Below, piece by piece: positions 1 to 58,591 of a DNA stretch of 64,000 nucleotides. The translations under genes and the position numbers were made by a program. The notes below the pieces were generated by a model that saw only the letters and a list, made by a program, of their open reading frames with translations, made no database searches and was not told the origin of the DNA. The DNA is taken from positions 206,072-270,071 of the forward strand of contig CAZENF010000002.1 of assembly GCA_964513645.1 (NCBI GenBank). The letters run 5' to 3'. This stretch comes from an uncultured Candidatus Saccharibacteria bacterium (GTDB lineage: Bacteria; Patescibacteriota; Minisyncoccia; 2-02-FULL-40-12; GWA2-44-9). Within the stretch, counting starts at the first letter, position 1, and each line of letters opens with the position of its first letter.

Positions 1-77
1 TGAAAGTTGTTGTCGAGGGAATCAAAGTTCAGGGCTTTGATTCAGTTTTACCGGTCAGCCCTGAAAAGTACGAGCTG

Positions 78-605
78 TTGAGCTCGGCGATGATCAATTG
101 GGTCAAGAAGCACATCTATTGGGTTCTTCCGATGAGCGGCATGATGGTCGCTGGTGGAGGAACCTACTGGTACATGAGTCCTGGTTCGAATCAACCGCGG
201 ATACCTTCGCAGGTTGTCCCGTTTGTTCAGCAGGGCGGAGCGCCTCAGCCGGTCTATCAGATGGCCGTTCCGTGTCAGCAGCAGGTTCCATGCCAGCCGG
301 TCATCGTCTGTCAGACCGTGAACTGTCAGCCTACGGCGCCCTTACAAGCAGCGCCGCCGGTACAGGTTATGCCGCCGGCCGTTGTCCAACCAATGCAGGT
401 TGCTCCACCAACCGTGGTTCAGCCCCCGCCAGTTCAGCAGCCACCACCGACCGCAAGGCGGCCGGCTCCGGCGGTTCAAGGAGAAAAGTGTCCATGTGTG
501 GTAAAACCGGTGTTCGAGGAGGTTCAACCTGAACCGCCTCGACAACTGAATGCTCGGGATGATCGCCGCAGAGATATCTGGGCACCTCTCAGCGCAAAAC
601 GCTGA
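78..605 (+). CDS. Pro/Gln/Val-rich low-complexity hypothetical protein with hydrophobic N-terminus. The frame is open to the window start, so it may be 5'-partial.
   Basis: The ORF starts at a TTG with an ATG at 90. PQ-rich repeats (PPVQ, QPV) and locally high GC. A hairpin terminator follows at 627-673. Confidence 0.4.
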   Translation: MSSAMINWVKKHIYWVLPMSGMMVAGGGTYWYMSPGSNQPRIPSQVVPFVQQGGAPQPVYQMAVPCQQQVPCQPVIVCQTVNCQPTAPLQAAPPVQVMPPAVVQPMQVAPPTVVQPPPVQQPPPTARRPAPAVQGEKCPCVVKPVFEEVQPEPPRQLNARDDRRRDIWAPLSAKR

Positions 606-626
606 ACTTCTCCTCTCGATACTACA

Positions 627-673
627 ACGCACTTCCCCTGCCTTCTGGCAGGAACAGGAAGTGCGTTTTTTCT
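627..673 (+). terminator. Rho-independent terminator
   Basis: 10-bp stem ACGCACTTCC/GGAAGTGCGT followed by a T-run. Confidence 0.6.
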
Positions 674-719
674 TTTATAAAATCTTGAAAAAACCTGAAA
701 AAATGATAAAATTCCAACA

Positions 720-1160
720 ATGAAACACTTCACCAAAGGTCCGAAAGAAACCCAAAAATTAGGGTATTTTTTGTTAAATAGAATAGGTTTAAGGAGGCGC
801 CGGAACGCAATTGTGGTTTCTCTGTCTGGTGATTTAGGTGCTGGTAAAACGGTTTTGGTCAGAGGGTTGGCCAGGATATTGGGCATAAAATCAAAGATCA
901 AAAGTCCAACCTTTACTTTAATGAAGAAGTATAAAATTCCTCGCTCTAAAAATTCAAAATTTCTATATCACCTCGACTGTTACCGGCTCAAAAACCACAA
1001 AGATCTTCTGGTCCTGGGTATAGACGATATTTTAAAAGATAAAGAAAATATCGTGATGATTGAGTGGCCGGAAAGGGTCAAAAAAATCTTGCCAAAAAAA
1101 CACATCAAAGTATCCATCGATCACGTTAATGAAAATACCCGAAAAATATCTATAAAATGA
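720..1160 (+). CDS. tsaE: tRNA threonylcarbamoyladenosine biosynthesis ATPase TsaE
   Basis: P-loop GDLGAGKT, the HLDCYRL motif and the typical 146-aa size. Confidence 0.8.
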   Translation: MKHFTKGPKETQKLGYFLLNRIGLRRRRNAIVVSLSGDLGAGKTVLVRGLARILGIKSKIKSPTFTLMKKYKIPRSKNSKFLYHLDCYRLKNHKDLLVLGIDDILKDKENIVMIEWPERVKKILPKKHIKVSIDHVNENTRKISIK

Positions 1161-3808: not shown

Positions 3809-3817
3809 TATAACCTT

Positions 3818-4696
3818 ATGCCCGAACTACCGGAAGTCGAAACAATTGTCAGGGATTTGAGAAAAAAAGTTATTGGCCTGAGGATAACCGATTTTTGGTC
3901 GGACCGGGAAAAACCGGTCAAACAAGCCGGCGGTTCTGCTGGATTTAAAAAAGAAATTAAAGGTAAAAAAATATTATCGGTCACTCGCCGGGCTAAATTT
4001 ATTGTGATTGATATCGAAGGAGATAAGTCACTTTTTATTCATCAGAAGATATCGGGTCATGTGATGTATGGTAAGTGGAAATTAGAGAACGGTGCCTGGA
4101 TTTCTTCTGTCCCAGGACCGCTTAAAAATGATCGCCAGAACCAGTATATACGCTATATCTGGGCCTTTAATAATGGATATCAAATGGCGATGTCTGATTT
4201 GCGAAGATTTAGCCGCGTAATCTTGGTTAAGGACAAGGACGTTTCTAATTTAAAAGAAATTCGTGATTTAGGGCCCGAACCCTTGGAAGTTTCTCAAAAG
4301 GAGTTTAAGGATTTGTTTAAAAATAAACGCGGTAATTTAAAACCAGTCTTGATGGACCCATATTTTATAGTCGGCATCGGGAATATCTATGCCGATGAGA
4401 TACTCTGGGATTCAGGAATCCATCCTTTATCTCGAGTTGAGAATTTAAAAAAGGGCCATATTGAAAAAATATTCAATTCTATGATAAAAATCTTGAAAAA
4501 AGCTATCCAAGCCAAGGGTTCAAGTGTGGATGATTACCGTACTCCGTCAGGAGAGAAAGGGAGTTATCAGGAGATTGAAAAAGCGTATCAGCAGACGGGT
4601 AAAAAATGTTTTCGGGGCGATGGCGGTGTTATGAAGAGATTGGTAATTGGTCAAAGGTCAGCTCATTTTTGTCCGAAACATCAAAAACTTTTTTAA
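3818..4696 (+). CDS. mutM: Formamidopyrimidine-DNA glycosylase
   Basis: N-terminal MPELPEVE, H2TH region and a C-terminal zinc finger CxxC...C. Confidence 0.85.
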   Translation: MPELPEVETIVRDLRKKVIGLRITDFWSDREKPVKQAGGSAGFKKEIKGKKILSVTRRAKFIVIDIEGDKSLFIHQKISGHVMYGKWKLENGAWISSVPGPLKNDRQNQYIRYIWAFNNGYQMAMSDLRRFSRVILVKDKDVSNLKEIRDLGPEPLEVSQKEFKDLFKNKRGNLKPVLMDPYFIVGIGNIYADEILWDSGIHPLSRVENLKKGHIEKIFNSMIKILKKAIQAKGSSVDDYRTPSGEKGSYQEIEKAYQQTGKKCFRGDGGVMKRLVIGQRSAHFCPKHQKLF

Positions 4697-4705
4697 TATC
4701 TTAAA

Positions 4706-5722
4706 ATGCTGAAACTTAATCTCAATAAAATACTAATTATCAGCGGCATCACAGCCTTAGTTTTTGTTGCAATTTTTTTAATTTGGTGGCAGAAAGCTCC
4801 AATCACGATAAATAATGAAAATAAGACTACTCAAACTGTTGAGATCGGCCCCAAAAGTCCGATAACGGGCACTAATTGTGACAATGCCGCTCAACGGCCT
4901 CTGGCGGTAATGATATCTTCTGATCCGGTTACTCGCCCTCTTTCGGGTATAAGCCAGGCTGATATTGTTTTTGAAATGCCGGTGACGCCGAGTGGGGTCA
5001 CGAGAATGATGTCAATCTATCAATGCGAAGAGCCGAAAGATATCGGTTCTATTCGGTCTGCTCGCCAGGATTTTATCCCTTTGGCGGCAGGATTGGATGC
5101 AATCTACGCTCATTGGGGAGGGGAGCATGGCGCGCTTCAAAATCTGAACAACCACGTTATCGACAACATTGATGCGATGAAATATGAAACGGTCTATTTT
5201 TATCGGAAAGCCGGAGTACCGCAGCCACATAACGGTTTTAGCGACTATCAGCGCCTCGTCAATGGAGCCAAAGATCTTAATTATTCTTTGAGCAAGAATT
5301 TTTCCGGCTACCCTCATTTAGAAAAAAACCAAAATGCGAGAAATATTCTTAACTTGGTTAATTCAATTTCGATAGACTATACCTCGCCGTTCAATGTTTT
5401 ATGGAGTTATGATGAAAATTCAGACACTTATAAACGCTTAAGGAACGGCCAGCCTGAAACGGATAGGAATAACGGAAATCAGGTCTCCGTGAGCACAGTT
5501 ATCGTGATGAAGACCACTTCTTCTTTTACTTCTAAAGATTATTTGACTGTTGTTACGGCCGGAAACGGCGACGCTGTAATTTATCAGAACGGTGTTAAGA
5601 TAGAGGGCAAGTGGTCAAAAGACCCTGCGACCCTTGATAGCAAACTTTTCTTTTATGATAATGATGGAAAAGAAATTGAGCTTGCTCCAGGCAAAATTTG
5701 GGTTGAGATCGAGACAAATTAG
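4706..5722 (+). CDS. DUF3048 (YerB-like) membrane-anchored protein
   Basis: N-terminal TM helix. The RPLAVMISSDPVTRPLSGISQADIVFE block matches the DUF3048 signature. Confidence 0.6.
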   Translation: MLKLNLNKILIISGITALVFVAIFLIWWQKAPITINNENKTTQTVEIGPKSPITGTNCDNAAQRPLAVMISSDPVTRPLSGISQADIVFEMPVTPSGVTRMMSIYQCEEPKDIGSIRSARQDFIPLAAGLDAIYAHWGGEHGALQNLNNHVIDNIDAMKYETVYFYRKAGVPQPHNGFSDYQRLVNGAKDLNYSLSKNFSGYPHLEKNQNARNILNLVNSISIDYTSPFNVLWSYDENSDTYKRLRNGQPETDRNNGNQVSVSTVIVMKTTSSFTSKDYLTVVTAGNGDAVIYQNGVKIEGKWSKDPATLDSKLFFYDNDGKEIELAPGKIWVEIETN

Positions 5723-5731
5723 ATCCTAATT

Positions 5732-6679
5732 ATGGTCATTTTTCTATATGGCACTGACTCTTACCGCCTAAAAGAAGCGAGAGAGGAAATGATGAAGCGG
5801 TACAAATATAAATATCCAAGCGGGATAAATTTTTTCGTGTTTGATGTTTCTGAACCTAATGAACTCGAAAACCTTGAGAAGGTTTTAAAAAGTTCTTCAT
5901 TTTTTAATGAACATAAATTGGTGATCATTTCGAACTCATTCCTTAAAAAAAATATAGCCGAAAAATTATCGGCTATATTCAATAGCTATGATATTGGAAA
6001 ATCAAGCGACATAACCCTGATCGTTTCTGAAAACAGTACTGAAAAAGATCTCGGAACTAAGAATAAAGAGCTCTCAAAAACTCTTTTACAAAGTAAGATG
6101 GTTAAAAACTTCGAACCCTTGACCGGATCAAAACTGGAGGAGTGGATCATAAATGGGTTCAAATCAAGACTCTGTCAGATAAACACAAATGCTTTAAGAA
6201 GATTAACCAGTTTAACCGGTAACGATAGTTGGCGTTTGGCGAATGAAATAGATAAACTAACTGCCTATAAGGCCGGTAAAGAGGTGACTGTCAAAGATAT
6301 AGAAAGTTTAGTTTCTGGTAGCGAATCATCTAATGTTTTTGAACTTACCGATGCCATAAGTTTAGGAAATAGAAAAAAGGCCATTGAGCTTCTATATTTT
6401 AATATTTTTACTGGCCAAGACCCGTATTATCTTCTGACTATGATAGTTCACCACTTCAGAAATGTACTCATAGTTAAAGGTCTTTCAACATCAGGACAAT
6501 CCGAACCCGAAATAGTCAAAAAGACAAAACTTCACCCTTTTGTGGTCAAAAAATCTTTAAGAAGTAAGTTCAGTCTTGAAGACGGAACCCGGGTTTATAA
6601 GAGTTTGTTGGAACTTGATTCTGGTTTCAAGAACGGAGCCATTGACCTTAAAGACGAACTCTCCGGTCTCTTAATTTGA
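5732..6679 (+). CDS. holA: DNA polymerase III subunit delta
   Basis: N-terminal LYGTDSY motif and a delta-subunit-like 315-aa helical protein. Confidence 0.7.
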   Translation: MVIFLYGTDSYRLKEAREEMMKRYKYKYPSGINFFVFDVSEPNELENLEKVLKSSSFFNEHKLVIISNSFLKKNIAEKLSAIFNSYDIGKSSDITLIVSENSTEKDLGTKNKELSKTLLQSKMVKNFEPLTGSKLEEWIINGFKSRLCQINTNALRRLTSLTGNDSWRLANEIDKLTAYKAGKEVTVKDIESLVSGSESSNVFELTDAISLGNRKKAIELLYFNIFTGQDPYYLLTMIVHHFRNVLIVKGLSTSGQSEPEIVKKTKLHPFVVKKSLRSKFSLEDGTRVYKSLLELDSGFKNGAIDLKDELSGLLI

Positions 6680-6739
6680 AATAATCTGTCCTTTGGTTAT
6701 TATTACTGTCATCGTCCCTTAAAAACCTTAGGAGGCATT

Positions 6740-8737
6740 TTGAGTCAGGATCCGGTTGTAAATGAAAACCCAAAGCCGAGCTTGAAAAACCTTATTGATC
6801 AGGAAATATCATCTTATCTTGAAAAAAGGGTTCAGAAAGAACCTATCACGATATCTGATTTTTGGGATCTTCTCGAGGCCGACCCTCAATTGGCCCAGCT
6901 CTCGCATCAGAGACTTTATTCGGCCGTAGGTTCACGCGGATACGAAGATATCAGTTTTGAGGTTGATCCCAGGCGGGCCAAACTTCTTGAACTTGAGCCG
7001 GGTTTTGTGATGAGAGTACCCAAACTTTTCACTCAACGTCTTTATGGTATCGAAAAAGTTCTGTTCTCAGTCGATAATTATCTTTATATGGCAGCGGGTC
7101 AGGGCGAAGCTTCTCGGCAAATGCTGTATTTCTGGGGTCCTCCCGGTTCGGGCAAGACCACACTTGCTGAAATAATGCGCCGAGTTCTTGAAGAACATGG
7201 CTTTTGGCAGTTACAAGACTGCGAGCATCATGACAATCCTGTCGATGCTACTCCGCGTCATTTGCGGGCAAAGATATTCGAGGATTACGGAATATTTATT
7301 GATCCGCGCGCAGACATCTGTCCCAAATGCCGTAAAAAGCTTACTGGCGAATATGGGAACGATTACAGGAAGTTCAAAGTTGAGTGGAAAACATTTTCCC
7401 AGAGGAAAAGCTGCGGTATCGCTGTGGTTTCTGAAGTTGATCCGATAAATTTCAACATGGCTGTCATGATCGGCGAGGAAGATATCTCCAAGTTGGGGGA
7501 TTACAAAAGAGGCGATCCTGAAACTCTGATCTTGAACGGGGCGTTCAGTCGCGGTAAGCGCGGTATAAATGAGATAGTCGAAATATGGAAAAATCCGGTC
7601 GAGGCTCAAAGGCCTTTGCTGACCCAAACTCAGGAAAGATATGTTCCTTTGCCTAAATTTACCGGGCAGGTGTATTCGGAGACCGTAATTATCAGCCATT
7701 CAAATGAAACAGAGTGGAGAAAATTTAAATCCGACCCGACAAATGAAGCGACTATGAACCGTATTTATGTTGTAAAAGTTCCTCACAATCTTAGACTGAC
7801 CGAGGAAGTCCAGATCTATAAAAACTCATTTCTCGACAGATCTCTTAATTTCCGGAATATCCACATTGACCCGCATTCTCTTGAACAGGTCGCGATGTTC
7901 GTTCTTTTTACCAGAATGGACAACAAGAACTCTCAAGTGGAACCGCTGGTAAAAATAAAAATATATGACGGTCAGGACTTAACATCTTCCGGAGAGCCCG
8001 TTAACATTACCCTATCTAAGTTCGGCGAGTTAGCTGACCCTAAAGAGGGGATGGTCGGACTATCTTATCGGGATGCGACCAAAAGCATAATCGAAGAAAG
8101 TCTGGCCTATTATCGTTGTTTTTGGGAAAAGGATGAATATCTCTCCAAATGCGGGGGCTACCTTAACCCGCTCTGGCTTCACAAGGCCATGGTAAGATAT
8201 GTTCAGGAATCTGATATACCAAAAGATGCCGAGTGGCCAAGAGCCGGAAAAAAACAATGGCTTTCGTTTATCCAGGATGACCTTTATCATGAACTGCTCG
8301 AATCACTCAAAACGGATGTTATCCTGGCTCACCTTAAGAATATTCAGGGTTCATTTCAGAAAACGGTCGATTATCTTTTGGGAGTCTACACAGACAATCT
8401 GATCCGGTCTTTTAACAAAGAACCGGTTGACGAAGATTTTGTTAAATCTGTTGAGGAAAAACTTCTTATGTCTGAATCTGAAAAACAGGCTTTCAGGTCA
8501 GAAATGGCCAAGGCCGCGTTCAGTTTAAAGGTCGCCGGAGAAAGTATCGATTCCAGTGCTTCAGGAAAGCTAAAGTTTTCCCTCGAGACTCTTGCCAGAC
8601 AGAACATCATGAGATCAATAGCTCAGAAACTCGGTGATCATAGTGAGAAAACCCGATTGATAGAAGCTATGACACAGATCGGCTATGCCAAGATCGGCGC
8701 CGAGACCGTGCTTGAACACGTAGCCAGACATGCTTAA
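6740..8737 (+). CDS. prkA: PrkA/YeaG family serine protein kinase (AAA+)
   Basis: The GPPGSGKTTLAEIM Walker A motif in a PrkA AAA domain, 665 aa. TTG start after a GGAGG RBS. Confidence 0.85.
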   Translation: MSQDPVVNENPKPSLKNLIDQEISSYLEKRVQKEPITISDFWDLLEADPQLAQLSHQRLYSAVGSRGYEDISFEVDPRRAKLLELEPGFVMRVPKLFTQRLYGIEKVLFSVDNYLYMAAGQGEASRQMLYFWGPPGSGKTTLAEIMRRVLEEHGFWQLQDCEHHDNPVDATPRHLRAKIFEDYGIFIDPRADICPKCRKKLTGEYGNDYRKFKVEWKTFSQRKSCGIAVVSEVDPINFNMAVMIGEEDISKLGDYKRGDPETLILNGAFSRGKRGINEIVEIWKNPVEAQRPLLTQTQERYVPLPKFTGQVYSETVIISHSNETEWRKFKSDPTNEATMNRIYVVKVPHNLRLTEEVQIYKNSFLDRSLNFRNIHIDPHSLEQVAMFVLFTRMDNKNSQVEPLVKIKIYDGQDLTSSGEPVNITLSKFGELADPKEGMVGLSYRDATKSIIEESLAYYRCFWEKDEYLSKCGGYLNPLWLHKAMVRYVQESDIPKDAEWPRAGKKQWLSFIQDDLYHELLESLKTDVILAHLKNIQGSFQKTVDYLLGVYTDNLIRSFNKEPVDEDFVKSVEEKLLMSESEKQAFRSEMAKAAFSLKVAGESIDSSASGKLKFSLETLARQNIMRSIAQKLGDHSEKTRLIEAMTQIGYAKIGAETVLEHVARHA

Positions 8738-8752
8738 CGCATGTCTTTTTTT
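8726..8752 (+). terminator. Rho-independent terminator overlapping the prkA stop codon
   Basis: Stem AGACATGC/GCATGTCT followed by a T7 run. Confidence 0.6.
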
Positions 8753-8795
8753 GTGCTAATTTAAAATCCAGCTTCCTTGTTCCAAAGGGGAAAGC

Positions 8796-9983
8796 TTGGC
8801 TAAATTCAGAGATCTTTCACAATTAGACAGAGAATTTAATCGAAGTACCGGAGACAGACAAAGGCATGCGGCTTTGGTCAGAGAATTGATGAGAGATAAT
8901 CTGGCTCAGCTTTTGGAAGAGATCGATATTTTCCGGTCTGATAATCAAGACATGTCCGGTAATTTGCAAAAAATAAGCGTTAAGATGGCCAAAGAATATC
9001 GTTTTATTTTTGGCCACAGACCTCAAAATACGAAAGGGACTGGTCAGGCCGAGGGAGTTAAGAGGGGACAAGTGGTAGGGAGTATCAAAGATCAATCGGA
9101 TGGTGTTAGTGGCAAAGATAATTTGGGTGGAATTGAGAAAGGGAGATTGATATTTGAATTAACTCCCGAAGACATAGATGACATCCTGGATGATTCGGCC
9201 AAGGATCTCAATCTCCCATATTTAAGTCGGAGCAAATCTAATCAAGTCTTATCTTTATCTGAGGCACGGTGGCGTGGTCTGAAAGAGAACGGGATAGCTC
9301 CTCGGCTTGATCTCGAGGCTTCTTGGATTGAAAAAATAAAAAGAGAAAAAATGATGTCCAAGAATAAGAGCATAGCTCTTAACCCTAAATTCATAAACGA
9401 CGATCTCCGCTATCACGGCCTGGGCATTAAACAGCGTCTTCAGACAAATGTTCTTCTGGTCTGCATCATGGATAAATCAAGCTCAATGGATGCCAAGAAA
9501 AGATACTTCACGAAATGTTTCCTCTATGCCGTTTACAATTTTGTCAGAGAAAAATATCTCAATTCGGACAGGTTGTTCATACTTCATGACACCGAAGCCC
9601 AGGAAACCGATTCCGATAAATTCTTCCGTGTTTCCGGTGACGGCGGAACCGCTATTTCGAGTGGCCCCAAAAAGGCCCTCGAATTGATAAATAAAAGATA
9701 TGACCAGGAACAATGGGATATATATTGTGTTCATTGTACTGACGGTGAAAATAATTCCAACGATAGTATTGAAGACGTGGTCAAAGTGTTCAAAGACCTG
9801 CTGGCCATCTCCAAACTTATCGGTTTCGCTGAGATCCAACCGGATAAAACGGACACGACCGCTTTTACCGATTCTGTTGTCCGTGGAGTTAAGAATGAAA
9901 GATTCAGAAAAATATTCATCACGAAAAAAGAAGATCTCCGGAGAGCTTTCGACGATTTTTTGAGTATTGAGCAGGAGGTTTAA
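8796..9983 (+). CDS. DUF444 (YeaH/YhbH) vWA-like protein
   Basis: The block LLVCIMDKSSSMD...GGTAISSG...QWDIYCVHCTDGENN aligns with the conserved E. coli YeaH block. Confidence 0.85.
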   Translation: MAKFRDLSQLDREFNRSTGDRQRHAALVRELMRDNLAQLLEEIDIFRSDNQDMSGNLQKISVKMAKEYRFIFGHRPQNTKGTGQAEGVKRGQVVGSIKDQSDGVSGKDNLGGIEKGRLIFELTPEDIDDILDDSAKDLNLPYLSRSKSNQVLSLSEARWRGLKENGIAPRLDLEASWIEKIKREKMMSKNKSIALNPKFINDDLRYHGLGIKQRLQTNVLLVCIMDKSSSMDAKKRYFTKCFLYAVYNFVREKYLNSDRLFILHDTEAQETDSDKFFRVSGDGGTAISSGPKKALELINKRYDQEQWDIYCVHCTDGENNSNDSIEDVVKVFKDLLAISKLIGFAEIQPDKTDTTAFTDSVVRGVKNERFRKIFITKKEDLRRAFDDFLSIEQEV

Positions 9984-15948: not shown

Positions 15949-18084
15949 TTCAAAATGTGTGAGCTTTTGGAACGATTCGAGGCGTTCTTGGAGGAGGGGA
16001 TAATTTTTAAGAGAGGGATCTTCTTTGAGAAGAGTGCGGGCTTCGAGACGGGCTTTTTTTATCAGGTCGATGTTGGCAAGGGAAGCCATGGCGAGGTCAG
16101 GCAGACCTGATTGCTTGACTCCGAAAAATTCCCCCGGTCCACGGAGCTTCATATCCTCTTCGGCCAGTTTAAATCCGTCATCTGTTTGGGCGAGTGCGTT
16201 TAAACGCCTATTTGTGGTCTTATCCTCTGTTGAACAAAAAAGAAGGCAGTATGATTGAAATTCATCCCGTCCGACCCGGCCGCGGAATTGGTGAAGCTGG
16301 GCAAGTCCGAAACGTTCGGCGCTTTCAATTGCCATGATCGTTGCATTGGGTACGTCGACGCCAACTTCAATGACCGAAGTTGAAACAAGGATATTATACC
16401 AGCCGTCCTTGAACTTATTCATTATGTCGGCTTTTTCTTTGGGCTTCATTTTACCGTGAAGCATTGCGACCTTGAGGTCAGGGAAGACTGCTTCTGATAA
16501 TTTCTTATATTCTTCTTCGACCGCTTTTACTTCCTGCCAGAGGATATTCATCTTGCTTTGTCCATAGCCGGCTTTAATTTCTTTTTTTGGATCAGACACT
16601 TCAATACGAGGACAAACAACGAAAACCTGACGCCCCTTTTTAACTTCTTCGCGTATGAATTGATAAGATAATTTTTTCTGAGATGGCGGGACAACCCTGG
16701 TGATTATTTTCTGGCGATTCTTCGGTTTTTCTTTTATGAGTGAAATATCAAGGTCGCCATAAATGGTTAAAGCCAAGGTTCTTGGGATGGGCGTTGCCGT
16801 CATACTTAGGAAGTGAGGGACAAGTTCCATGTTTTTGACTAAAGCGGAACGCTGATGGATGCCGAAACGGTGCTGTTCATCGATAACAACCATCGCCAAT
16901 TTGGCAAATGAAACATCTTTTTGGATGACGGCATGGGTACCGATAATTATACCAACTTCACCTGACGCTATTTTCTGTTTTAATTCTTTTTTGAGAATAT
17001 CTTTTCCGTCAAGCTTGGATTCGGAACCGGTTAAGAGACAGGTGTGTACGGCGCTATCTTTAATCAGCGAACCCACGGTTTCATAGTGCTGGGCGGCCAG
17101 AACTTCGGTCGGCACCATAAAAACCGTCTGACAGCCGTTTTTGGCAATCTGATAAGCGGCGGTCAGGGCAACAACAGTTTTTCCTGACCCGACATCTCCT
17201 TCCATCAGCCGGTTCATCGGATAATTTTTCTTGAGATCTTTTAATATTTCCCATAGCGAGACCTTTTGGTCGGTGGTCAGTTCAAACGGCAGTTGGGCTA
17301 TAAAATTCTGAATAAGCGGCTGGTCGAATTCTACGGAGATAGATTTTAATTGGTTCAATTTCCGTCTTTCGAGGAGAGCTTTAATCTGGAAAAGTAATAA
17401 ATCTTCAAACGCAAAACGTTCTCTTGCGGTTTCTGCTTCTACAAGCTCGTTCGGATAATGGATATCTGAAATTGCTTGGGAAAGTTCCGGGAAATTATAT
17501 TTAGAAAGAAGTGAGGAGGGGAGAGGGTCGTCGAGGGTTATGTTTTTAAGAACGGGCTTAATCAGGAAACGTAGATACTTGGAGGTTACGCCTTCGGTTT
17601 CCGGATAAACTGGTACAAGGCCATGGGTGTGTTTCAGGTTTACTGAAGAAGCTGCGGGCTGAAGGTCAGGAGAGGTCGATATCTTTTCATAGGTAGGGCT
17701 TGAAAGATAAACTCCGTTTTTGTTCAAAGAAACTTTTCCGGCCAGACTGACAAAGGTGCCCTCGGTCAGTTGATTCTCGATATACGGTTGGTTGAACCAG
17801 ACGACTTTAATTGCGCCGGATGAATCACCGACGATGGCGTTTGTAACAGATAAGCGTCTTGGGAAGATACGGCGGCTTGAGATTTTCAGGACCTCACCTT
17901 GAACATTAACTTTTTGTCCGGGTTCGGCTTGGGCAATTGGCATTAGTTCGGTGTAGTCTTCATAACGAACGGGAAAATGCCAAAGGAGGTTTTTTAGAGT
18001 TTTAATGCCAAGCCGGTTTAGCCGAGAAATATTCCTTGGCCCGACATTGCGCAATTTTTCTATCGGCAAATCGAGGGGTGTCAT
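15946..18084 (-). CDS. recG: ATP-dependent DNA helicase RecG
   Basis: Wedge/OB N-terminal domain. Helicase motifs GDVGSGKT, DEQHRFG and the TATPIPRT block. 712 aa. Confidence 0.9.
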   Translation of the reverse strand: MTPLDLPIEKLRNVGPRNISRLNRLGIKTLKNLLWHFPVRYEDYTELMPIAQAEPGQKVNVQGEVLKISSRRIFPRRLSVTNAIVGDSSGAIKVVWFNQPYIENQLTEGTFVSLAGKVSLNKNGVYLSSPTYEKISTSPDLQPAASSVNLKHTHGLVPVYPETEGVTSKYLRFLIKPVLKNITLDDPLPSSLLSKYNFPELSQAISDIHYPNELVEAETARERFAFEDLLLFQIKALLERRKLNQLKSISVEFDQPLIQNFIAQLPFELTTDQKVSLWEILKDLKKNYPMNRLMEGDVGSGKTVVALTAAYQIAKNGCQTVFMVPTEVLAAQHYETVGSLIKDSAVHTCLLTGSESKLDGKDILKKELKQKIASGEVGIIIGTHAVIQKDVSFAKLAMVVIDEQHRFGIHQRSALVKNMELVPHFLSMTATPIPRTLALTIYGDLDISLIKEKPKNRQKIITRVVPPSQKKLSYQFIREEVKKGRQVFVVCPRIEVSDPKKEIKAGYGQSKMNILWQEVKAVEEEYKKLSEAVFPDLKVAMLHGKMKPKEKADIMNKFKDGWYNILVSTSVIEVGVDVPNATIMAIESAERFGLAQLHQFRGRVGRDEFQSYCLLFCSTEDKTTNRRLNALAQTDDGFKLAEEDMKLRGPGEFFGVKQSGLPDLAMASLANIDLIKKARLEARTLLKEDPSLKNYPLLQERLESFQKLTHFE

Positions 18085-18134: not shown

Positions 18135-18168
18135 AACACAACCCACGCTATTAGCGTGGGTTGTGTTT
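18135..18168 (-). terminator. Hairpin terminator downstream of tRNA-Arg
   Basis: 13-bp perfect stem ACACAACCCACGC/GCGTGGGTTGTGT followed by T-rich sequence on the minus strand. Confidence 0.6.
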
Positions 18169-18174
18169 ATAATG

Positions 18175-51349: not shown

Positions 51350-51393
51350 ACTTGTGAATTTACATCCCTGAAGGCCCGTTCTATAATATATGT

Positions 51394-51864
51394 ATGAAAA
51401 AAGTTAATTTAGACAAGAAGCTTTGGACAATTGTCGGTATTTTTGCGGTGGCAACTTTTGTTGCCATGGTCGTAATAAGCAACACGTCCCAGGAGGTGCC
51501 TATGGGCCCTGGGCAGAAGGTGGTTTCACCCAAATTATCTACTCCGCCAACCTCGGTCACATCCGGTACGGCGAAACAGGTGGCGACTTATACTAATTTG
51601 GTACAGCAGTACCAGGGCCGCCATATCCAGTTTGACGCACATTGCCAGGCCATTCCGAATTACGTTACTTACAAGAACGGGACCAATGTCATGTTCGACA
51701 ACCGTTCCGGCGATGCCAGATATATTTCTGTCGGCGGCGCCAAATACTATCTACCCGGATATGGATATAGGGTCCTTACTTTATACACCAAAACCTTGCC
51801 CCAGACACTCTATCTCAATTGCGGGGCCGCAGTTAATGTCGGCAGAATTCTTCTCCAGCGTTAG
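51394..51864 (+). CDS. Hypothetical membrane-anchored/exported protein
   Basis: 156 aa with an N-terminal TM helix and a Ser/Thr-rich linker. Confidence 0.45.
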   Translation: MKKVNLDKKLWTIVGIFAVATFVAMVVISNTSQEVPMGPGQKVVSPKLSTPPTSVTSGTAKQVATYTNLVQQYQGRHIQFDAHCQAIPNYVTYKNGTNVMFDNRSGDARYISVGGAKYYLPGYGYRVLTLYTKTLPQTLYLNCGAAVNVGRILLQR

Positions 51865-51877
51865 TATATAAATTAAA

Positions 51878-51917
51878 ATAAAAAAACAATCCCGCTGTTT
51901 TGCGGGATTGTTTTTTA
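51878..51917. terminator. Bidirectional terminator between convergent genes
   Basis: Stem ACAATCCCGC/GCGGGATTGT flanked by A7 and T6. Confidence 0.65.
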
Positions 51918-52421
51918 TTGAGTGACCGTTATTCTGCCGGTATCGCTTGGTACAAGGTGATTGTGGTACATCCAGTTTCCTGTTTTGGTAATTTTAAACG
52001 ACCAGGAGCTACCGGGCTTGGTTCCGTCGCAGGCGTCGAACGAGACGTTCTTGGGATCTGGACAATGTTGGACCATCGAGGTGCCGCTGTAGAGCATGTG
52101 GGTCGGATGTATGCCTGAAGCGGTCCACATTGCACGGCTGCTCGAATTAACGAAATTCACGATTGTTCCTATTTTTATATTTAATACGTTCGGAATGTAC
52201 CCGGAGTCGGTATATTTAACCAGCACTTCCTGGGCCGATTCAGGTGGTGTGACCCTGGGCGAGACCGTTTCAGAAGACGGATAAACCTGGACCGGCGGGA
52301 TGGAAGGCGAGGGGGTTAGACTGGCAACGGTTGTCGGAGTAGGGGCTTTGAATTTTAAAAAGAGATACGTTCCTCCAACCAGGAGAAGCAGAACCACCAT
52401 CACGATTAATATTTTGGTCAT
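51915..52421 (-). CDS. Cupredoxin-like (plastocyanin-fold) exported protein, putative
   Basis: N-terminal TM/signal anchor and a PT-rich linker. Beta-strand pattern IKIGTIVNFVN. No canonical Cu-ligand quartet was confirmed. Confidence 0.4.
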   Translation of the reverse strand: MTKILIVMVVLLLLVGGTYLFLKFKAPTPTTVASLTPSPSIPPVQVYPSSETVSPRVTPPESAQEVLVKYTDSGYIPNVLNIKIGTIVNFVNSSSRAMWTASGIHPTHMLYSGTSMVQHCPDPKNVSFDACDGTKPGSSWSFKITKTGNWMYHNHLVPSDTGRITVTQ

Positions 52422-52501
52422 AATAGGGATTATATCATAAGCTATCTAAAATTAATCTCGCCTTGTCTTAAGGGGTAATTCATATTATTATATATGGATA
52501 T

Positions 52502-52568
<67 letters not shown>

Positions 52569-52574
<6 letters not shown>

Positions 52575-52629
52575 AGCAATGTGTCACCATTGGCACCAAA
52601 ACAGTCAGAAATGGCTGTTTTTGGTTTAT
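52569..52629 (+). repeat. 61-bp perfect direct repeat, copy 1. Spans the last nucleotides of tRNA-fMet plus its terminator hairpin.
   Basis: Identical to 54948-55008. Confidence 0.9.
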
Positions 52630-52647
52630 AAAATAAAAGAGAGCATT

Positions 52648-53142
52648 TTAAGCTCTCGCATCCACTAATTGAGTTTTCAGAAGAGATCCCTCCCTCACGG
52701 TTGTAAAAATCGGCCTAATGGGACCGGATGGCCAGTTGAACTGAATCGGCTTTTCGAATCTTTTAAGATCAGTAAAGAAATATCCGAATGGCAGCGGATA
52801 AACACCAGCTCGATACCCCTCTCTTTCAACCAATCTTCGTGCCTGACTACGAGTCAGATTATTGAAGTTCAGATACATCTGATACTCTTCACGTTGTTTA
52901 AGTTCTCGAACAGATACGAGTCGCCCAACCCCGATAATAATCCCGTGATTTTGTCTCCCGCTCTCGTATTCGTAATTGTTCACGCAATGCCAAGCAGTTC
53001 TTCCTGAATTATATAGAAGCACATCGCCTCGATAATCCCAATCATAGCTTCTGGTCTTTACGCCATATTCACCTAACTGTAGTCGTCCGTCCAAAAGCAT
53101 ATCGTTATATGGATACCAATTAGGAAATACCGGAAGTTTCAT
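52648..53142 (-). CDS. Hypothetical protein (orphan) inside the repeat-bounded islet
   Basis: 164 aa with an AGGAGA RBS. No family recognised. Confidence 0.5.
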   Translation of the reverse strand: MKLPVFPNWYPYNDMLLDGRLQLGEYGVKTRSYDWDYRGDVLLYNSGRTAWHCVNNYEYESGRQNHGIIIGVGRLVSVRELKQREEYQMYLNFNNLTRSQARRLVEREGYRAGVYPLPFGYFFTDLKRFEKPIQFNWPSGPIRPIFTTVREGSLLKTQLVDARA

Positions 53143-53220
53143 TAGATTCTCCTATTGTTTCAGAACTGATCCACATATTACTCTTAATCTATACTATTTC
53201 AAGCAGAAGAAAAACTATAT

Positions 53221-53274
53221 ATCTCCCCGATATTCACTATCAATTGTTGCCAATGACGGCACACTTCTGCAACA
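53221..53274 (+). repeat. 54-bp repeat element, copy A, with internal palindrome TGTTGC(N18)GCAACA
   Basis: About 87% identical to 55631-55684. Confidence 0.7.
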
Positions 53275-53285
53275 CTATAGGAGAG

Positions 53286-53311
53286 ACAGACGCCGAAACG
53301 TCTGTTTTTTC
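53286..53311 (+). terminator. Plus-oriented hairpin plus T6 immediately after repeat copy A
   Basis: Stem ACAGACG/CGTCTGT followed by TTTTTT. Confidence 0.5.
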
Positions 53312-53326
53312 TTGGCCTGTGAGGTT

Positions 53327-54859
53327 CTAACCGAGGAGTTTTATTCCGACGAGAAATGATATTAAAAGCAGGGCTATAATAATCCCTGTTTCCTGGCTTG
53401 TCATTTTGTTCGGTAGCGGTGCCGACAGGCCAGAGGGTTCTTCTGTTTGGGAAGTTGAAGGTGGCGGGGAAAGTATCTCGAATTCGGACAGAGAATAGAA
53501 AGTAGCATTATCGTTTTCGTGGACTACTTTAAGAACGTAAGGCCCGGAGGGTGCGGATAAAGGTACGGTAAACTCGGTGTCGAAAGAATCGCCGCCATTC
53601 TCAACTTCCATATTGCCAAGCTCAAATGAACTTACCGTGCCTTCTATCGATATAAAATATTTCCCTGATTCCTGGAGCCCGTCGGCATTTACGGTAAATT
53701 TGTCCCCAGCCAAAATTTTATCCGGCTTGACCGTTATGGCCGGTATCATATGAGCGTATGCGTTCTGAACTAAAAAAGAATTATCTTTTATTGGCCAGAA
53801 TAACCCTTCCTTCATAGTTTCTGTTTTATGCAAATATGCTTCGGCTCCAAAAAGCAATAATGTTGCCAGTATCAGTCCGCCAAGTACCATTATTGGTTTT
53901 CTTTTGGCAGGATGAAGATACGGATTTGTATCGATAAAAGGTATCAGCGCCAAGAGCATAAAAAGTATAGCCGGGCCGAAAATAACCGCCTTAAACCCGA
54001 AAAAATCTTCCATTCCGTAAAAAGGCAGAAATGGCCAGGGTGGTTTGGTAAGTTCGGCGCCGACTACGCCCGGAGTTCCAAGGGGGTCAGGAAAGACGAG
54101 GGCCATCAACCCGAGAACAGAGAACAGAATGAGATTGCATCCTAAAAGTTTTTTAAGATGTCCTGCAAAATTTGACTCTCCTTCACCGGCCGTTGAACGG
54201 CTGATCGCTTCAGGCGTCGGAGCCGGTGAGATCCCGTGAAGCTTTATTAAATAAAGATGAATGAACAGAAAGGATAAGAACAAAAAAACAAGAAAAGTTA
54301 TATGAGCGAAGAAGACCCGGGCTAAGATAGGGATACTGATCGCAAAACCGGAAGTGAACCATAGGCCCATGCCGCCTAAAAGTTCGCCGACCCCGATATT
54401 ATGAGTCAGCGCTTCAATCGCTTCCTGGTCCTGTTTAAGAACCGTCCCGGTGAAATAAAACGCCAGGGCCAGTACTAAAAGCATCAGGCCGGTCAGCCAG
54501 ATGAATTCCCGCGGTTTTTTATAACTTCCGGAAATAAAAACACGGACCAGGTGAAGCAGAATTATCACTATAAAAAAATTCGCGGCCCAGTAATGCAAGC
54601 TTCTTAAAAATCCTCCGAAAGGAATCATTGTCGCCAGATAAATTATGCTTTTGTAGGCGTTATCGGGGGACGGGTTATAAAATTGGGCCAAAATAATACC
54701 GGTTAAGACAAGGATTACAAAACATCCCAGAGCCACACCCCCCAACATATAAGGCGGGGTATTGGCGTGACGAGGCACACCATAATAAAGCCGCGAGATA
54801 CCAAGCCGTTCATCAAGAGCGGACCACAGGCGGCTTGAACGGAATCCATCTTTTTTCAT
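53327..54859 (-). CDS. Cytochrome b (bc-complex type) N-terminal domain fused to extra TM helices and an extracytoplasmic beta-rich domain with a C-terminal TM anchor
   Basis: Helix B signature RSLHYWAANFF...LLHLVRVFISGSYKKPRE (compare RxLHxxGAS.FF...H..RG.YYGSY..PRE). Second His pair AHITF...FIHL. 510 aa. Confidence 0.7.
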   Translation of the reverse strand: MKKDGFRSSRLWSALDERLGISRLYYGVPRHANTPPYMLGGVALGCFVILVLTGIILAQFYNPSPDNAYKSIIYLATMIPFGGFLRSLHYWAANFFIVIILLHLVRVFISGSYKKPREFIWLTGLMLLVLALAFYFTGTVLKQDQEAIEALTHNIGVGELLGGMGLWFTSGFAISIPILARVFFAHITFLVFLFLSFLFIHLYLIKLHGISPAPTPEAISRSTAGEGESNFAGHLKKLLGCNLILFSVLGLMALVFPDPLGTPGVVGAELTKPPWPFLPFYGMEDFFGFKAVIFGPAILFMLLALIPFIDTNPYLHPAKRKPIMVLGGLILATLLLFGAEAYLHKTETMKEGLFWPIKDNSFLVQNAYAHMIPAITVKPDKILAGDKFTVNADGLQESGKYFISIEGTVSSFELGNMEVENGGDSFDTEFTVPLSAPSGPYVLKVVHENDNATFYSLSEFEILSPPPSTSQTEEPSGLSAPLPNKMTSQETGIIIALLLISFLVGIKLLG

Positions 54860-54947
54860 GAGTTAATTATACTACCAACTTCTGACAAACACGAACGGCT
54901 GATAGCCGGTTGATCCCATAATTGCGGCTCGGACATCGTTCATCGCT

Positions 54948-55008
54948 CGCAACAGCAATGTGTCACCATTGGCACCAAAACAGTCAGAAATGGCTGTTTT
55001 TGGTTTAT
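54948..55008 (+). repeat. 61-bp perfect direct repeat, copy 2 (att-like duplicate of the tRNA-fMet 3' end plus terminator)
   Basis: Identical to 52569-52629. Confidence 0.9.
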
Positions 55009-55066
55009 TTTACAAATAAAGTAATTTTTGTTATTTTTCATCAGCTAATAAGAGGGGTCTTTAACA

Positions 55067-55600
55067 ATGGCGAAATCGAAAATGATAAGAATCACCTTTG
55101 AGGAGCAACTGGGCAGATTGAGATTTAATTATTGCGGTCCGGAGGGCACAGTGTCGGATTGGGTTCCGACCAAGCTGGCAGAAGAAGGCTCGAATAACGA
55201 AATTCGGAAATATGTTATCAATAAAGCACGAAAAATTATCAGGGAACAAGAACAGAAAGGGCAGCAACTAATCCGTACCCAAGAAATTATCAAGAAAACT
55301 AACATCTCGATTTCAGTAACATATAACGGTATGAAGCTAAAAGGTAGGATTACTCACAATGACGGTGGACGAGGCGGTATAGTCGTTACCCTAGAAAAGC
55401 CAAAAGCTCTTTCAGCCCAGGATACATTACAAATGTGTTTCGCTCTTGCTATGGGTGGAAAGCAGATTTTTTTACCGAATGGGAAAGTAGCTCCTTGGGC
55501 AGTAGAACGGGCAAAAGAATTGCTTGCCCAGATATATCACAAACAAATAGTTCAAAACCGAGCAAAGATATTGAATACTAATACAGATATCGCCGACTAA
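55067..55600 (+). CDS. Hypothetical protein (orphan)
   Basis: 177 aa with a GAGGGG RBS. No family recognised. Confidence 0.5.
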   Translation: MAKSKMIRITFEEQLGRLRFNYCGPEGTVSDWVPTKLAEEGSNNEIRKYVINKARKIIREQEQKGQQLIRTQEIIKKTNISISVTYNGMKLKGRITHNDGGRGGIVVTLEKPKALSAQDTLQMCFALAMGGKQIFLPNGKVAPWAVERAKELLAQIYHKQIVQNRAKILNTNTDIAD

Positions 55601-55613
55601 TCATCGGCTTTTT
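55592..55613 (+). terminator. Terminator overlapping the stop codon (GCCGACTAATCATCGGCTTTTT)
   Basis: Near-identical to the terminator at 56820-56841. Confidence 0.6.
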
Positions 55614-55630
55614 AATTTACAGAGGCATAA

Positions 55631-55684
55631 ATCTCCCCGATATTTTGAATCAATTGTTGCCAATGACGACATACTTCTGCAACA
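55631..55684 (+). repeat. 54-bp repeat element, copy B
   Basis: ATCTCCCCGATATT..CAATTGTTGCCAATGACG..CTTCTGCAACA shared with copy A. Confidence 0.7.
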
Positions 55685-55833
55685 AACAGGAAACAATCCA
55701 GCAACTTCCACAAACTCCTAGATAAAGCCGCATATTCGCCTATTAGAATACCCCCGTATCATCTCCTTTATTACTATTGACAAAACAAAAAATTAGTTAT
55801 ATTGTTTTCTTGCTCATTAAAAGAAGTAGGTAG

Positions 55834-56253
55834 ATGATGCTCTTCAAGTTGATACGAGAATTTCTGGATAGAATAGCTGATAATCATTTAAAAGCCGAAA
55901 ATCGCGAGAGAAAGTTTGTCGTAAAGTTTATTGGAACGAGGGTTGTTGAAGTAGCTTTGCGGATGTACGAAGACGACGGACATAATGAATATCTTTTTTG
56001 GTATCAGCCCGATTCTGTTTGCAATGAGTTTTTTAGAAAAGCGCAGAACCAGTTAGCAGCCGACCTAAAGTGTTGGAGCAAATTCTATAAGTGGACCAGA
56101 CGGCTTCAAAAATCTCTCTACCCGATCGCTTGGTTGCTTAATTATCTGAACAACAATCTCAAGCTCCCATTTATTTGCCACCACTATTTATATTTTTGGT
56201 CCCAGAATTTGGACTATAATACTGGCAACTGGAATATAATCTCGGAACTCTAA
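55834..56253 (+). CDS. Hypothetical protein (orphan, Trp/Tyr-rich)
   Basis: 139-aa ORF. TTGACA-N17-TATTGT promoter-like upstream. Confidence 0.45.
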   Translation: MMLFKLIREFLDRIADNHLKAENRERKFVVKFIGTRVVEVALRMYEDDGHNEYLFWYQPDSVCNEFFRKAQNQLAADLKCWSKFYKWTRRLQKSLYPIAWLLNYLNNNLKLPFICHHYLYFWSQNLDYNTGNWNIISEL

Positions 56254-56351
56254 AGCGGCGATGGCCTCTTTTTGATTTTATCTACCCACTTCATTTTACA
56301 ACCCTAACCTTAAATGCTATTTTCTCCTCAGTTCCTTATCCGGAGACCAAG

Positions 56352-56501
56352 ATGCTTCAACGCTTAGCATTTTCCGTGATTATGAGTATTCTCGTCTCTT
56401 TTCTCCTGTATTCTCTGATGACCACAAAACCGTCGAAATGCTTCAGCTGGCCTGATACTACCGGACCTGATTCAATGGCAATGAAATGGATTTGCCGCTG
56501 A
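56352..56501 (+). CDS. Possible small hydrophobic peptide (49 aa)
   Basis: ATG six nucleotides after GGAG, one predicted TM helix. A hairpin at 56521-56545 follows it. Confidence 0.25.
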   Translation: MLQRLAFSVIMSILVSFLLYSLMTTKPSKCFSWPDTTGPDSMAMKWICR

Positions 56502-56577
56502 ACGGATTTATTCCTTGATCAATACACCTATTAGGTGTATTTTGTTTATTAGTTCTTGGTTTAATACGGGGAACCGC

Positions 56578-56814
56578 ATGATCGAGAATATGAAGTTTTG
56601 GGAAAAATTAGATAAAATGCTGGGTGGGGATAAAGACCCTTTTGACGTGCCTGTTGGACCGACCAAAATGTGTATAACTGCCAGACAGTTGGTTGCTTTT
56701 GTAGATGATGGAGAAAAAGACGAAGGTGCTCTCAATGAATTTATCCAAAAACACCTGGGTGATTGCAGGGAATGCTTGGACCGACTGAATAGATACAAAG
56801 AAGTAAGAAAATAA
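56578..56814 (+). CDS. Small zf-HC2-like protein (putative anti-sigma factor-type zinc finger)
   Basis: C-terminal HLGDCRECLDRL (H-x3-C-x2-C). Start set at the internal ATG. Confidence 0.45.
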   Translation: MIENMKFWEKLDKMLGGDKDPFDVPVGPTKMCITARQLVAFVDDGEKDEGALNEFIQKHLGDCRECLDRLNRYKEVRK

Positions 56815-56819
56815 TTTGT

Positions 56820-56841
56820 GCCGACCAATCGTCGGCTTTTT
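56820..56841 (+). terminator. Terminator GCCGACCAATCGTCGGCTTTTT
   Basis: Twin of the terminator at 55592-55613. A TTGACA -35 lies immediately downstream. Confidence 0.6.
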
Positions 56842-56899
56842 ATTGACAATAAATTACAAGAAACTATCCTGTCAGCAGGACATTAAAAGGATAACTCAA

Positions 56900-58517: not shown

Positions 58518-58589
58518 GCCGGTGTAGTTCAATGGTTAGAACGAGGGACTCATAAGCCCTAGATAGTAGTTCGATTCTACTCACCGGCA
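58518..58589 (+). tRNA. tRNA-Met (CAU anticodon; elongator Met or tRNA-Ile2 precursor cannot be distinguished)
   Basis: Acceptor GCCGGTG/CACCGGC, anticodon loop CTCATAA, T-loop TTCGATT. Confidence 0.7.
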
Positions 58590-58591
58590 CT

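Follow-up and report, generated by a model that had tools for sequence, protein, structure and literature searches.

What is a bacterium doing with a short intergenic sequence that it keeps in two nearly identical copies? The question is raised by a 64,000-nt stretch of DNA (the window) from an uncultured Candidatus Saccharibacteria bacterium (contig CAZENF010000002.1, positions 206,072 to 270,071). In it a 54-mer, here called D2, is found at 53221-53274 and 55631-55684, both times on the plus strand and with 48 of 54 positions identical (89%). A first-pass annotation had pointed out this pair and suggested a small, independently terminated RNA, an operator shared by the adjacent genes, or the end of a miniature mobile element. 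The most probable identity of D2 is not a small RNA but the right-hand end of two very small cassettes, each with a single gene and without a recombinase, inserted at and near an initiator tRNA gene. The last of the three suggestions is therefore the one favored by the evidence, in a more specific form, although neither a recombinase nor a circle nor a further copy was found.

As a description of the DNA, the annotation was accurate. With up to 3 mismatches allowed, the window contains only these two copies, and 0 of 100 dinucleotide shuffles reach two. The full extent of the repeat is 4 nt further to the left, giving D2a (53217-53274) and D2b (55627-55684), which agree at 51 of 58 positions (88%). 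The inverted repeat is present as proposed (TGTTGC at 53245-53250, GCAACA at 53269-53274, with an 18-nt spacer), and the hairpin followed by six T residues (T6) at 53286-53311, behind copy A, is real. Each copy sits between genes, upstream of the one named for it (copy A, g164 on the minus strand; copy B, g139 on the plus strand). D2b also occurs, 100% identical, in the Logan contigs L001 and L002, and g177 (the gene preceding it) together with D2b is found at 100% identity in independent Logan assemblies of two runs.

D2 does not stand alone. A second repeat pair, D1, had been overlooked at first reading. It spans 66 nt at 52564-52629 and 54943-55008 and is 97% identical, with 60 nt exact from CGCAACA onward. 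The spacing from copy to copy is 2379 nt for D1 and 2410 nt for D2. D1a begins 11 nt inside the 3' end of a tRNA-Met gene, and the sequence GCAACA at 52570-52575 consists of the last 4 nt of that gene (G70-A73) and the 2 nt downstream (CA). This tRNA bears the hallmarks of a bacterial initiator, as read from its sequence (C1 mismatched with A72, and an anticodon stem closed by three G:C pairs). No other tRNA in the window has additional 3'-end copies, and this one is preserved intact next to D1a according to ARAGORN and Rfam. The main features are as follows, all on the plus strand.

52502..52574, plus strand: tRNA-Met (CAT), initiator-type, the candidate primary attachment site (ARAGORN; Rfam tRNA, 66 bits).
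52564..52629, plus strand: D1a, left arm of unit A and putative attL; CGCAACA, the 21-nt GCAATGTGTCACCATTGGCACC, and the terminator hairpin hpB (52598-52621 plus a T run).
53217..53274, plus strand: D2a, right arm of unit A and putative attR, copy A of the first-pass annotation (repeat pair, dyad symmetry with D1); ends in the core GCAACA, 53269-53274.
53275..53313, plus strand: hairpin hpA and T6, the presumed original tRNA terminator, displaced 699 nt by unit A; homologue in contigs L077-L080.
54943..55008, plus strand: D1b, left arm of unit B (repeat pair); core GCAACA at 54949-54954.
55627..55684, plus strand: D2b, right arm of unit B, copy B of the first-pass annotation (repeat pair, dyad symmetry); ends in the core GCAACA, 55679-55684.

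The local order begins with tRNA-fMet, D1a, g164 (minus strand, 52648-53142), D2a, the hairpin with T6, and a cytochrome-b-like gene (minus strand, 53327-54859) and continues with D1b, g177 (plus strand, 55067-55600), D2b, and then a promoter and g139. Two units can be read from this order, unit A (52570-53274, adding 699 nt) and unit B (54949-55684, adding 730 nt). They share the layout D1, one gene, D2, while their cargo is unrelated and lies on opposite strands. A second tRNA-Met (CAT), distinct from the initiator type, is located 6 kb downstream at 58518-58590, directly before an M16 peptidase gene, and has no displaced 3'-end copies. A decayed tRNA ahead of D1b was also considered and rejected, the alignment being at chance level (539 of 3000 shuffles).

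Is the repeat structure real or a product of assembly? Logan contig L001 starts at 54979, the first unique 31-mer to the right of D1b, as would be seen if D1 is truly repeated in the sample concerned. In principle, the exact 60 nt of D1 do permit an alternative resolution, namely, a chromosome reading tRNA-D1-g177 plus a 2379-bp circle that would hold D1-g164-D2a-hairpin-cytochrome b. The data must contain each of the four junction sequences, since 7 positions distinguish D2a from D2b and the sequence to the left of D1b is unique.

Where do the units begin and end? Identity within the D1 pair begins at (C)GCAACA, identity within the D2 pair ends at (T)GCAACA, and the flanks beyond are unrelated. 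Since both identities stop at GCAACA, both units are bounded by one hexamer, which brackets unit A at 52570 and 53269 and unit B at 54949 and 55679. Chance agreement on a shared hexamer boundary would be expected at roughly 2e-4 per register. The two arms are also related to each other: beside the core, D2 matches the reverse complement of D1 at 20 of 26 positions, a level reached by 8 of 5000 shuffles and 32 of 5000 random window segments. When all left flanks were compared with all right flanks, D2-left/D1-right was the sole type of combination above background (2 to 6 of 3000). When joined as D2-GCAACA-D1, the arms form an imperfect palindrome, which would be the anatomy of an attP core site that has been split into attR and attL. 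Two extensions of this pattern were rejected. The idea that the left flank at every GCAACA junction is a tRNA-3'-like remnant fails beyond an adjacent CCCC, and among left flanks only D2a-D2b is significant. The cytochrome b segment and segments of L077 were tried as further elements of a three-element stack; their flanks, including those of the cytochrome b gene, show no dyad symmetry, and the claim is kept to two units.

How might such units have arisen? The reading favored here, considered about evenly balanced between right and wrong, takes D1 as the attL arm and D2 as the attR arm of two ~0.7-kb integrase-less cassettes, resembling cis-mobilizable elements (CIMEs), that entered by site-specific integration at the 6-bp core. 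The circular form would carry attP as D2-GCAACA-D1, an imperfect palindrome of ~23 to 26 nt per arm, and would recombine with a chromosomal site bearing the same 6-bp core. The primary site would be formed by the last bases of the initiator tRNA gene (G70-A73 plus CA), so that the tRNA stays intact. Insertion of unit A would give the tRNA a new terminator, the D1 hairpin, and move the old hairpin and T6 beyond D2, and unit B would occupy a further core, similar to the first and 1.7 kb downstream of it. The recombinase would act in trans and be encoded outside the window; given a shared core of 6 to 7 bp flanked by inverted arms, a tyrosine recombinase is the most plausible type of enzyme. Concrete sequences for testing are supplied by this scheme: one attP, two attB sites, and four junctions. 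The junctions predicted for empty sites are CCCTCCCCCGCAACACTATAGGAGAG and CCCTCCCCCGCAACACTATAGGAGAGAC (site A) and CATCGCTCGCAACAAACAGGAAAC (site B), and that predicted for a circle or tandem is CACTTCTGCAACAGCAATGTGTC.

Do relatives retain an empty site? The window comes from an organism of the Parcubacteria (Yanofskybacteria-like). Its closest GatA relatives are only 76 to 78% identical, and the GatA of contigs L077-L080 is 76% identical. L077-L080 have GatA, g161, and DAO side by side, the last on the other strand, and relative to them the window is thus variable throughout 51.4-56.8 kb. The lineage-specific part amounts to about 5.5 kb (window 51350-56815 versus L077 11400-13100) and comprises g156, g168, tRNA-fMet, both units, cytochrome b, g139, and g99, with the DAO block inverted. 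The relatives carry three same-orientation copies of CCCGCAACA on the DAO strand (L077 minus strand, 17460, 15033, and 13524; same in L078-L080), where ~0.08 per strand would be expected by chance. Behind each stands a terminator hairpin, and all three sit between accessory modules consisting of toxin-antitoxin-like genes (HicB-like, RelE-like) or of MerR-like plus DUF4325 genes. At the L077 site K2, the sequence reads ...TGTCCCCGCAACA|AGGCAGGAGAAGCAGACGCAAAAACGTCTGTTTTTCC, that is, a decamer of the tRNA 3' end fused to a homologue (30 of 35 positions) of the post-D2a hairpin and T6; in all of L077-L080, the tRNA-3'-end-like CCCCGCAACA is contiguous with the hairpin homologue. When the empty site A is reconstructed (52566-52575 plus 53275-53313), it aligns continuously with K2 at 40 of 49 positions (controls, 1 of 2000 and 13 of 5000). 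The window keeps the same two halves apart by exactly 699 nt of D1-g164-D2.

Because its homologue is attached to CCCCGCAACA in a relative, the hairpin with T6 is probably the tRNA's own displaced terminator and not that of a small RNA. A second L077 site, K1, reads ...TTCATCCCCCGCAACAG followed by 25 nt and a hairpin that is identical to hpB, the D1 hairpin, at 26 of 29 positions. To its left, D1b has TTCATCGCTC, which is similar to the corresponding flank of K1 (14 of 5000). The K1 hairpin and its D1b-like left flank mean that D1-type arms exist in the wider lineage; the right arms, which contain the terminators, are conserved to an unusual degree for intergenic sequence from relatives this distant. 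L077 contains no D2-like sequence and no partner for the middle segment of K1. There is no tRNA within 21 kb of the L077 CCCGCAACA sites, and the left flanks of K2 and K3 share an additional 41-nt repeat (71%). L077 also has an exact 20-nt repeat, ATTATCAATCAATGTCCCCG, at 16656-16675 and 18152-18171 (plus strand), in intergenic or 5' regions 1.5 kb apart; its similarity to the left part of D2 is within noise and was not used.

What, then, of the small RNA? It was proposed that D2 and the downstream hairpin form a transcript of ~90 nt, and a strong plus-strand terminator does lie behind copy A, where 53221-53311 folds with a z score of -2.9. This signal is due wholly to the terminator hairpin, which, as mentioned, is tied to the tRNA 3' end in relatives. 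D2 itself folds no better than shuffles on either strand (z, -0.96 to +0.74), and the equivalent stretch at copy B has a z score of -0.09 and no terminator. The base changes between the D2 copies are not compensatory. Promoter and terminator scans found no plus-strand promoter common to both copies and no common terminator. In an Rfam scan, the tRNA-Met was the sole accepted match, and nothing was accepted at D2, where the only overlap is a sub-threshold minus-strand match to HgcE at chance level (score, 22 bits; gathering score, 50; E, 0.12). D2 thus has neither a covariance match nor a conserved stable structure with its own promoter and terminator, and the small RNA is scarcely credible. 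Two sub-threshold Rfam matches are taken as chance: isrI at 52335-52430 (plus strand, 27 bits versus gathering 45) and HgcE at 53201-53321 (minus strand, 22 versus 50).

A cis-regulatory role, with D2 as an operator or UP-like element common to the adjacent orphan genes, fares only slightly better and is very improbable. In its favor, each copy is intergenic with a gene downstream of it, and D2a is overlapped by a weak promoter-like match on the minus strand (53243-53214). That match is not kept in D2b, however, and D2 is oriented oppositely relative to g164 and g139, at ~15 nt from the best promoter-like site for g164 versus ~93 nt for g139. No regulator gene lies near D2 in a Pfam scan of ten open reading frames (ORFs) between 50849 and 58428, and such a role would leave D1, the common hexamer, and the L077 junction unexplained.

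Integration has difficulties of its own, and several observations weigh against it. The direct repeat flanking the units is only the 6-bp GCAACA, 4 bp of it tRNA, whereas islands at tRNA genes usually have 15 to 221 bp (10.1101/2020.11.02.365908). The D1 copies are identical at 60 of 60 positions and the D2 copies at 51 of 58, a gap not predicted by two independent insertions unless the D1 arm is constrained or gene-converted. At the L077 "empty site," synteny is not preserved, nor is there an intact tRNA beside it. A D1b-like left flank and a D1-like hairpin co-occur at K1 (14 of 5000), so the D1b junction may be old rather than the result of a recent insertion, and the reconstructed empty sites A and B are alike only marginally (247 of 5000). 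No integrase or transposase was seen in the window (N-terminal translations read by eye; Pfam on the same ten ORFs). DNA resembling D1 or D2 is absent from the GTDB representative genomes, JGI metagenome contigs, IMG/VR, phages, and plasmids, and these collections yielded no excised circle, no empty site in a close strain, and no third copy.

Could the arms simply be resident DNA? If D1 and D2 were the resident flanks of a "gene slot" beside the tRNA that had been duplicated locally, content could be swapped with that of other strains by homologous recombination or gene conversion with no dedicated recombinase. The 60/60 identity of D1 is what gene conversion or recent duplication would be expected to give, and the near-equal spacings, the D1-like hairpin and similar left flank already present in a distant relative (K1), and the lack of a recombinase all fit. 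A simple tandem duplication, however, predicts homology before D1a/D1b and after D2a/D2b, and neither was found; the common hexamer end, the D2/D1 dyad symmetry, and the CCCCGCAACA-hairpin junction in L077 are also left unexplained. The gene slot is considered unlikely, but it and a target-specific nonautonomous transposon are the main rivals to integration.

The transposon would carry a passenger gene, as a mobile insertion cassette (MIC) or a miniature inverted-repeat transposable element (MITE) with cargo, and its transposase would be encoded elsewhere. Its imperfect terminal inverted repeats (TIRs) would be CAGCAATGTGTCACCATTGGCACCAA and CAGAAGTGTGCCGTCATTGGCAACAA, and CAA within GCAACA would be a 3-bp target duplication. 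The inverted terminal similarity (20/26) and the small size of a unit without an enzyme gene are as such a transposon would have them, and the empty site that it predicts is the same as under integration. Against it, an identical context of at least 6 to 7 bp (CGCAACA) at both insertions is more readily explained by a site-specific recombinase than by DDE transposition of the usual kind. That CCCGCAACA recurs next to terminators in relatives, where such TIRs are lacking, speaks for an att core, and the window contains no related insertion sequence (IS) and no extra TIR copy. A transposon is therefore quite unlikely.

How thoroughly was mobility sought? In the collections, scans with the D2 core and with a unified D1/D2 pattern returned only chance matches (at most 28/67 identity outside the fixed positions). 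The D2-D1 attP junction was not found in them, the attP query likewise matching by chance only, and BLAST searches of phages and plasmids with the reconstructed attP gave nothing meaningful. Scans of IMG/VR for both hairpins found nothing. A cognate integrase-bearing element at the same att site was seen neither in the window (by eye) nor in L077-L080. The tRNA 3' end, when searched in IMG/VR, matched only an irrelevant tRNA array on the 380-kb contig L081 (IMGVR_UViG_3300031992_004563), which packs 14 tRNA genes within 9.8 kb (1-9802). In its initiator-like tRNA-Met, the last 22 nt plus ACA are identical to the window tRNA.

Which known systems do the units resemble? Tandem accretion of integrase-less elements at the 3' ends of tRNA and transfer-messenger RNA (tmRNA) genes is well documented (PMC5704250; PMC3146451). 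As in CIMEs and in accretion at such genes (PMC5704250), including the Dehalococcoides ssrA islands (PMC3146451), the units have putative att-type repeats that include the end of the target RNA gene, lack integration genes, and are stacked downstream. A conserved 15-bp motif that the Dehalococcoides islands carry just upstream of the repeat is the counterpart of D2 (PMC3146451). A CIME keeps attL and attR and lacks genes for integration and transfer; both units fit this description if their arms are att sites. Unlike those elements, the units are only ~0.7 kb with a single gene, have a core of 6 bp rather than ~20 bp, use the same arms for unrelated cargo in opposite orientations, have no known cognate integrase element, and show no sign of having decayed from larger elements. 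With the islands and prophages that tyrosine or serine integrases insert at tRNA genes, they share the asymmetric 3'-end sublocation, the intact tRNA, a direct repeat of the putative crossover segment, and dyad-symmetric arms in the putative attP (10.1101/2020.11.02.365908). They differ in that no integrase lies inside the units and in size, 0.7 kb against 3.5 kb for the smallest island with an integrase and direct repeats, as well as in the short repeat discussed above (10.1101/2020.11.02.365908).

Integron cassettes are also similar in being ~0.5 to 1 kb, with a single gene and no recombinase, inserted in trans, and with a common site framework around unrelated cargo. Here, however, the palindrome is split between the ends, as in attL/attR, with no intact 3' attC, and TGTTGC/GCAACA, as read from the sequence, does not fit GTTRRRY/RYYYAAC. 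Whereas integron cassettes are mostly promoterless and lie by intI, attI, and Pc, the cargo in the units has its own promoter-like sites and either orientation, and no intI, attI, or Pc was seen. MICs and MITEs with passenger genes likewise have short imperfect inverted ends around a passenger gene and no transposase. They differ from the units, which have an identical 6- to 7-bp target context in both copies, no parent IS in sight, and ends of ~55 to 60 nt of nonsymmetrical sequence with a terminator on one side only. Also to be compared are the modules that exploit Xer recombination, integrative mobile elements exploiting Xer (IMEX) and pdif. A Xer/dif site is 28 bp long, with XerC and XerD arms around a 6-bp spacer, and resembles the host dif. 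To our knowledge, the D2/D1 site has no resemblance to published dif consensus sequences.

Why would any of this matter? Bacteria of the candidate phyla radiation (CPR, or Patescibacteria) make do with very small genomes, and how they acquire genes is poorly understood. The units, if mobile, would rank with the smallest known cassettes that integrate site-specifically (one gene, ~55-nt arms, a 6-bp core, the initiator tRNA) and would show how accessory genes, such as one for an ASCH-like nucleic-acid-binding protein and various orphans, get shuffled in CPR. If the repeats are only a duplicated frame, the locus reflects ordinary local genome plasticity. One speculation goes further still: D1 and D2 might be the reusable arms of a CPR cassette-exchange system that is integron-like but differently built. 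It would have ~55-nt arms, a 6-bp core beside the initiator tRNA, a recombinase acting in trans, and promoter-gene-terminator modules in either orientation, and related cores (CCCCGCAACA plus terminator) would organize the accessory region in other Parcubacteria. This is rather unlikely.

What do the units carry? There is one ORF per unit, and the cargo genes come with promoter-like sites and terminators of their own. The cargo modules and the DNA between the units are as follows.

52639..53202, minus strand: cargo module of unit A; promoter-like site 53202-53175, g164 53142-52648, terminator 52657-52639 (ORF and promoter/terminator scan).
53327..54859, minus strand: gene for a 510-aa protein with a cytochrome b N-terminal domain (Pfam PF00033, PF13631; NCBIfam), treated as flanking DNA between the units.
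55004..55619, plus strand: cargo module of unit B; promoter-like site 55009-55037, g177 55067-55600, terminator 55592-55614.

The g164 product has no Pfam match, and its predicted fold is ASCH/PUA-like (predicted local distance difference test [pLDDT] score, 94). The best matches in the PDB are the DNA-bound TRIP4 ASCH domain (probability 1.0; template modeling [TM] score, ~0.5 to 0.6) and bacterial ASCH proteins. The family has 26 homologues, in varied contexts without D1 or D2, and an alignment of g164 with 25 homologues (26 sequences) has 37 invariant columns. The g177 product is an orphan without a Pfam match, and searches with PADLOC, PHROGs, and NCBIfam did not suggest a function for g164, g177, or g139. 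Contigs L067 and L068 were considered as strain variation downstream of a g164 homologue and set aside; their DNA is identical, and only the gene calls differ.

The g177 module has counterparts in L062, L074, and L075, with 76 to 78% nucleotide identity. From ribosome-binding site to terminator, these three are ~89 to 94% identical to one another (94% against L062), and they occur in three unrelated contexts, none with D1, D2, or the core. Homology to the window ends on the right 8 nt before D2b and on the left at the end of D1b (L074) or 40 nt past D1b (L062). With homologues of g177 and g164 found elsewhere without D1 or D2, the arms are not simply the genes' own flanks. Single-gene modules seem to move in these CPR genomes by some means other than D1/D2. 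The homologues of window 55048-55619 (L062 474-1028, L074 1610-2163, and L075 3486-4020) have sharp boundaries and no visible flanking repeats.

Parcubacteria are generally described as lacking respiratory chains, and a cytochrome b gene is unusual there. In the 510-aa protein, the cytochrome b/b6 domain occupies residues ~36 to 263 and is followed by a C-terminal extension of ~250 aa without a family match. Finally, a near-identical terminator hairpin, GCCGAC(T/C)AA...TCGGC plus a T run, stands behind several unrelated small accessory genes: in the window at 55592-55614 and 56820-56842, in L062 at 1006-1028, in L074 at 1535-1555 and ~2147-2165, and in L075 at 3396-3416 and ~3998-4018. Zero matches are expected in shuffles. 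In several cases, the TAA stop codon lies within the loop, and the hairpin may mark the boundaries of modules.

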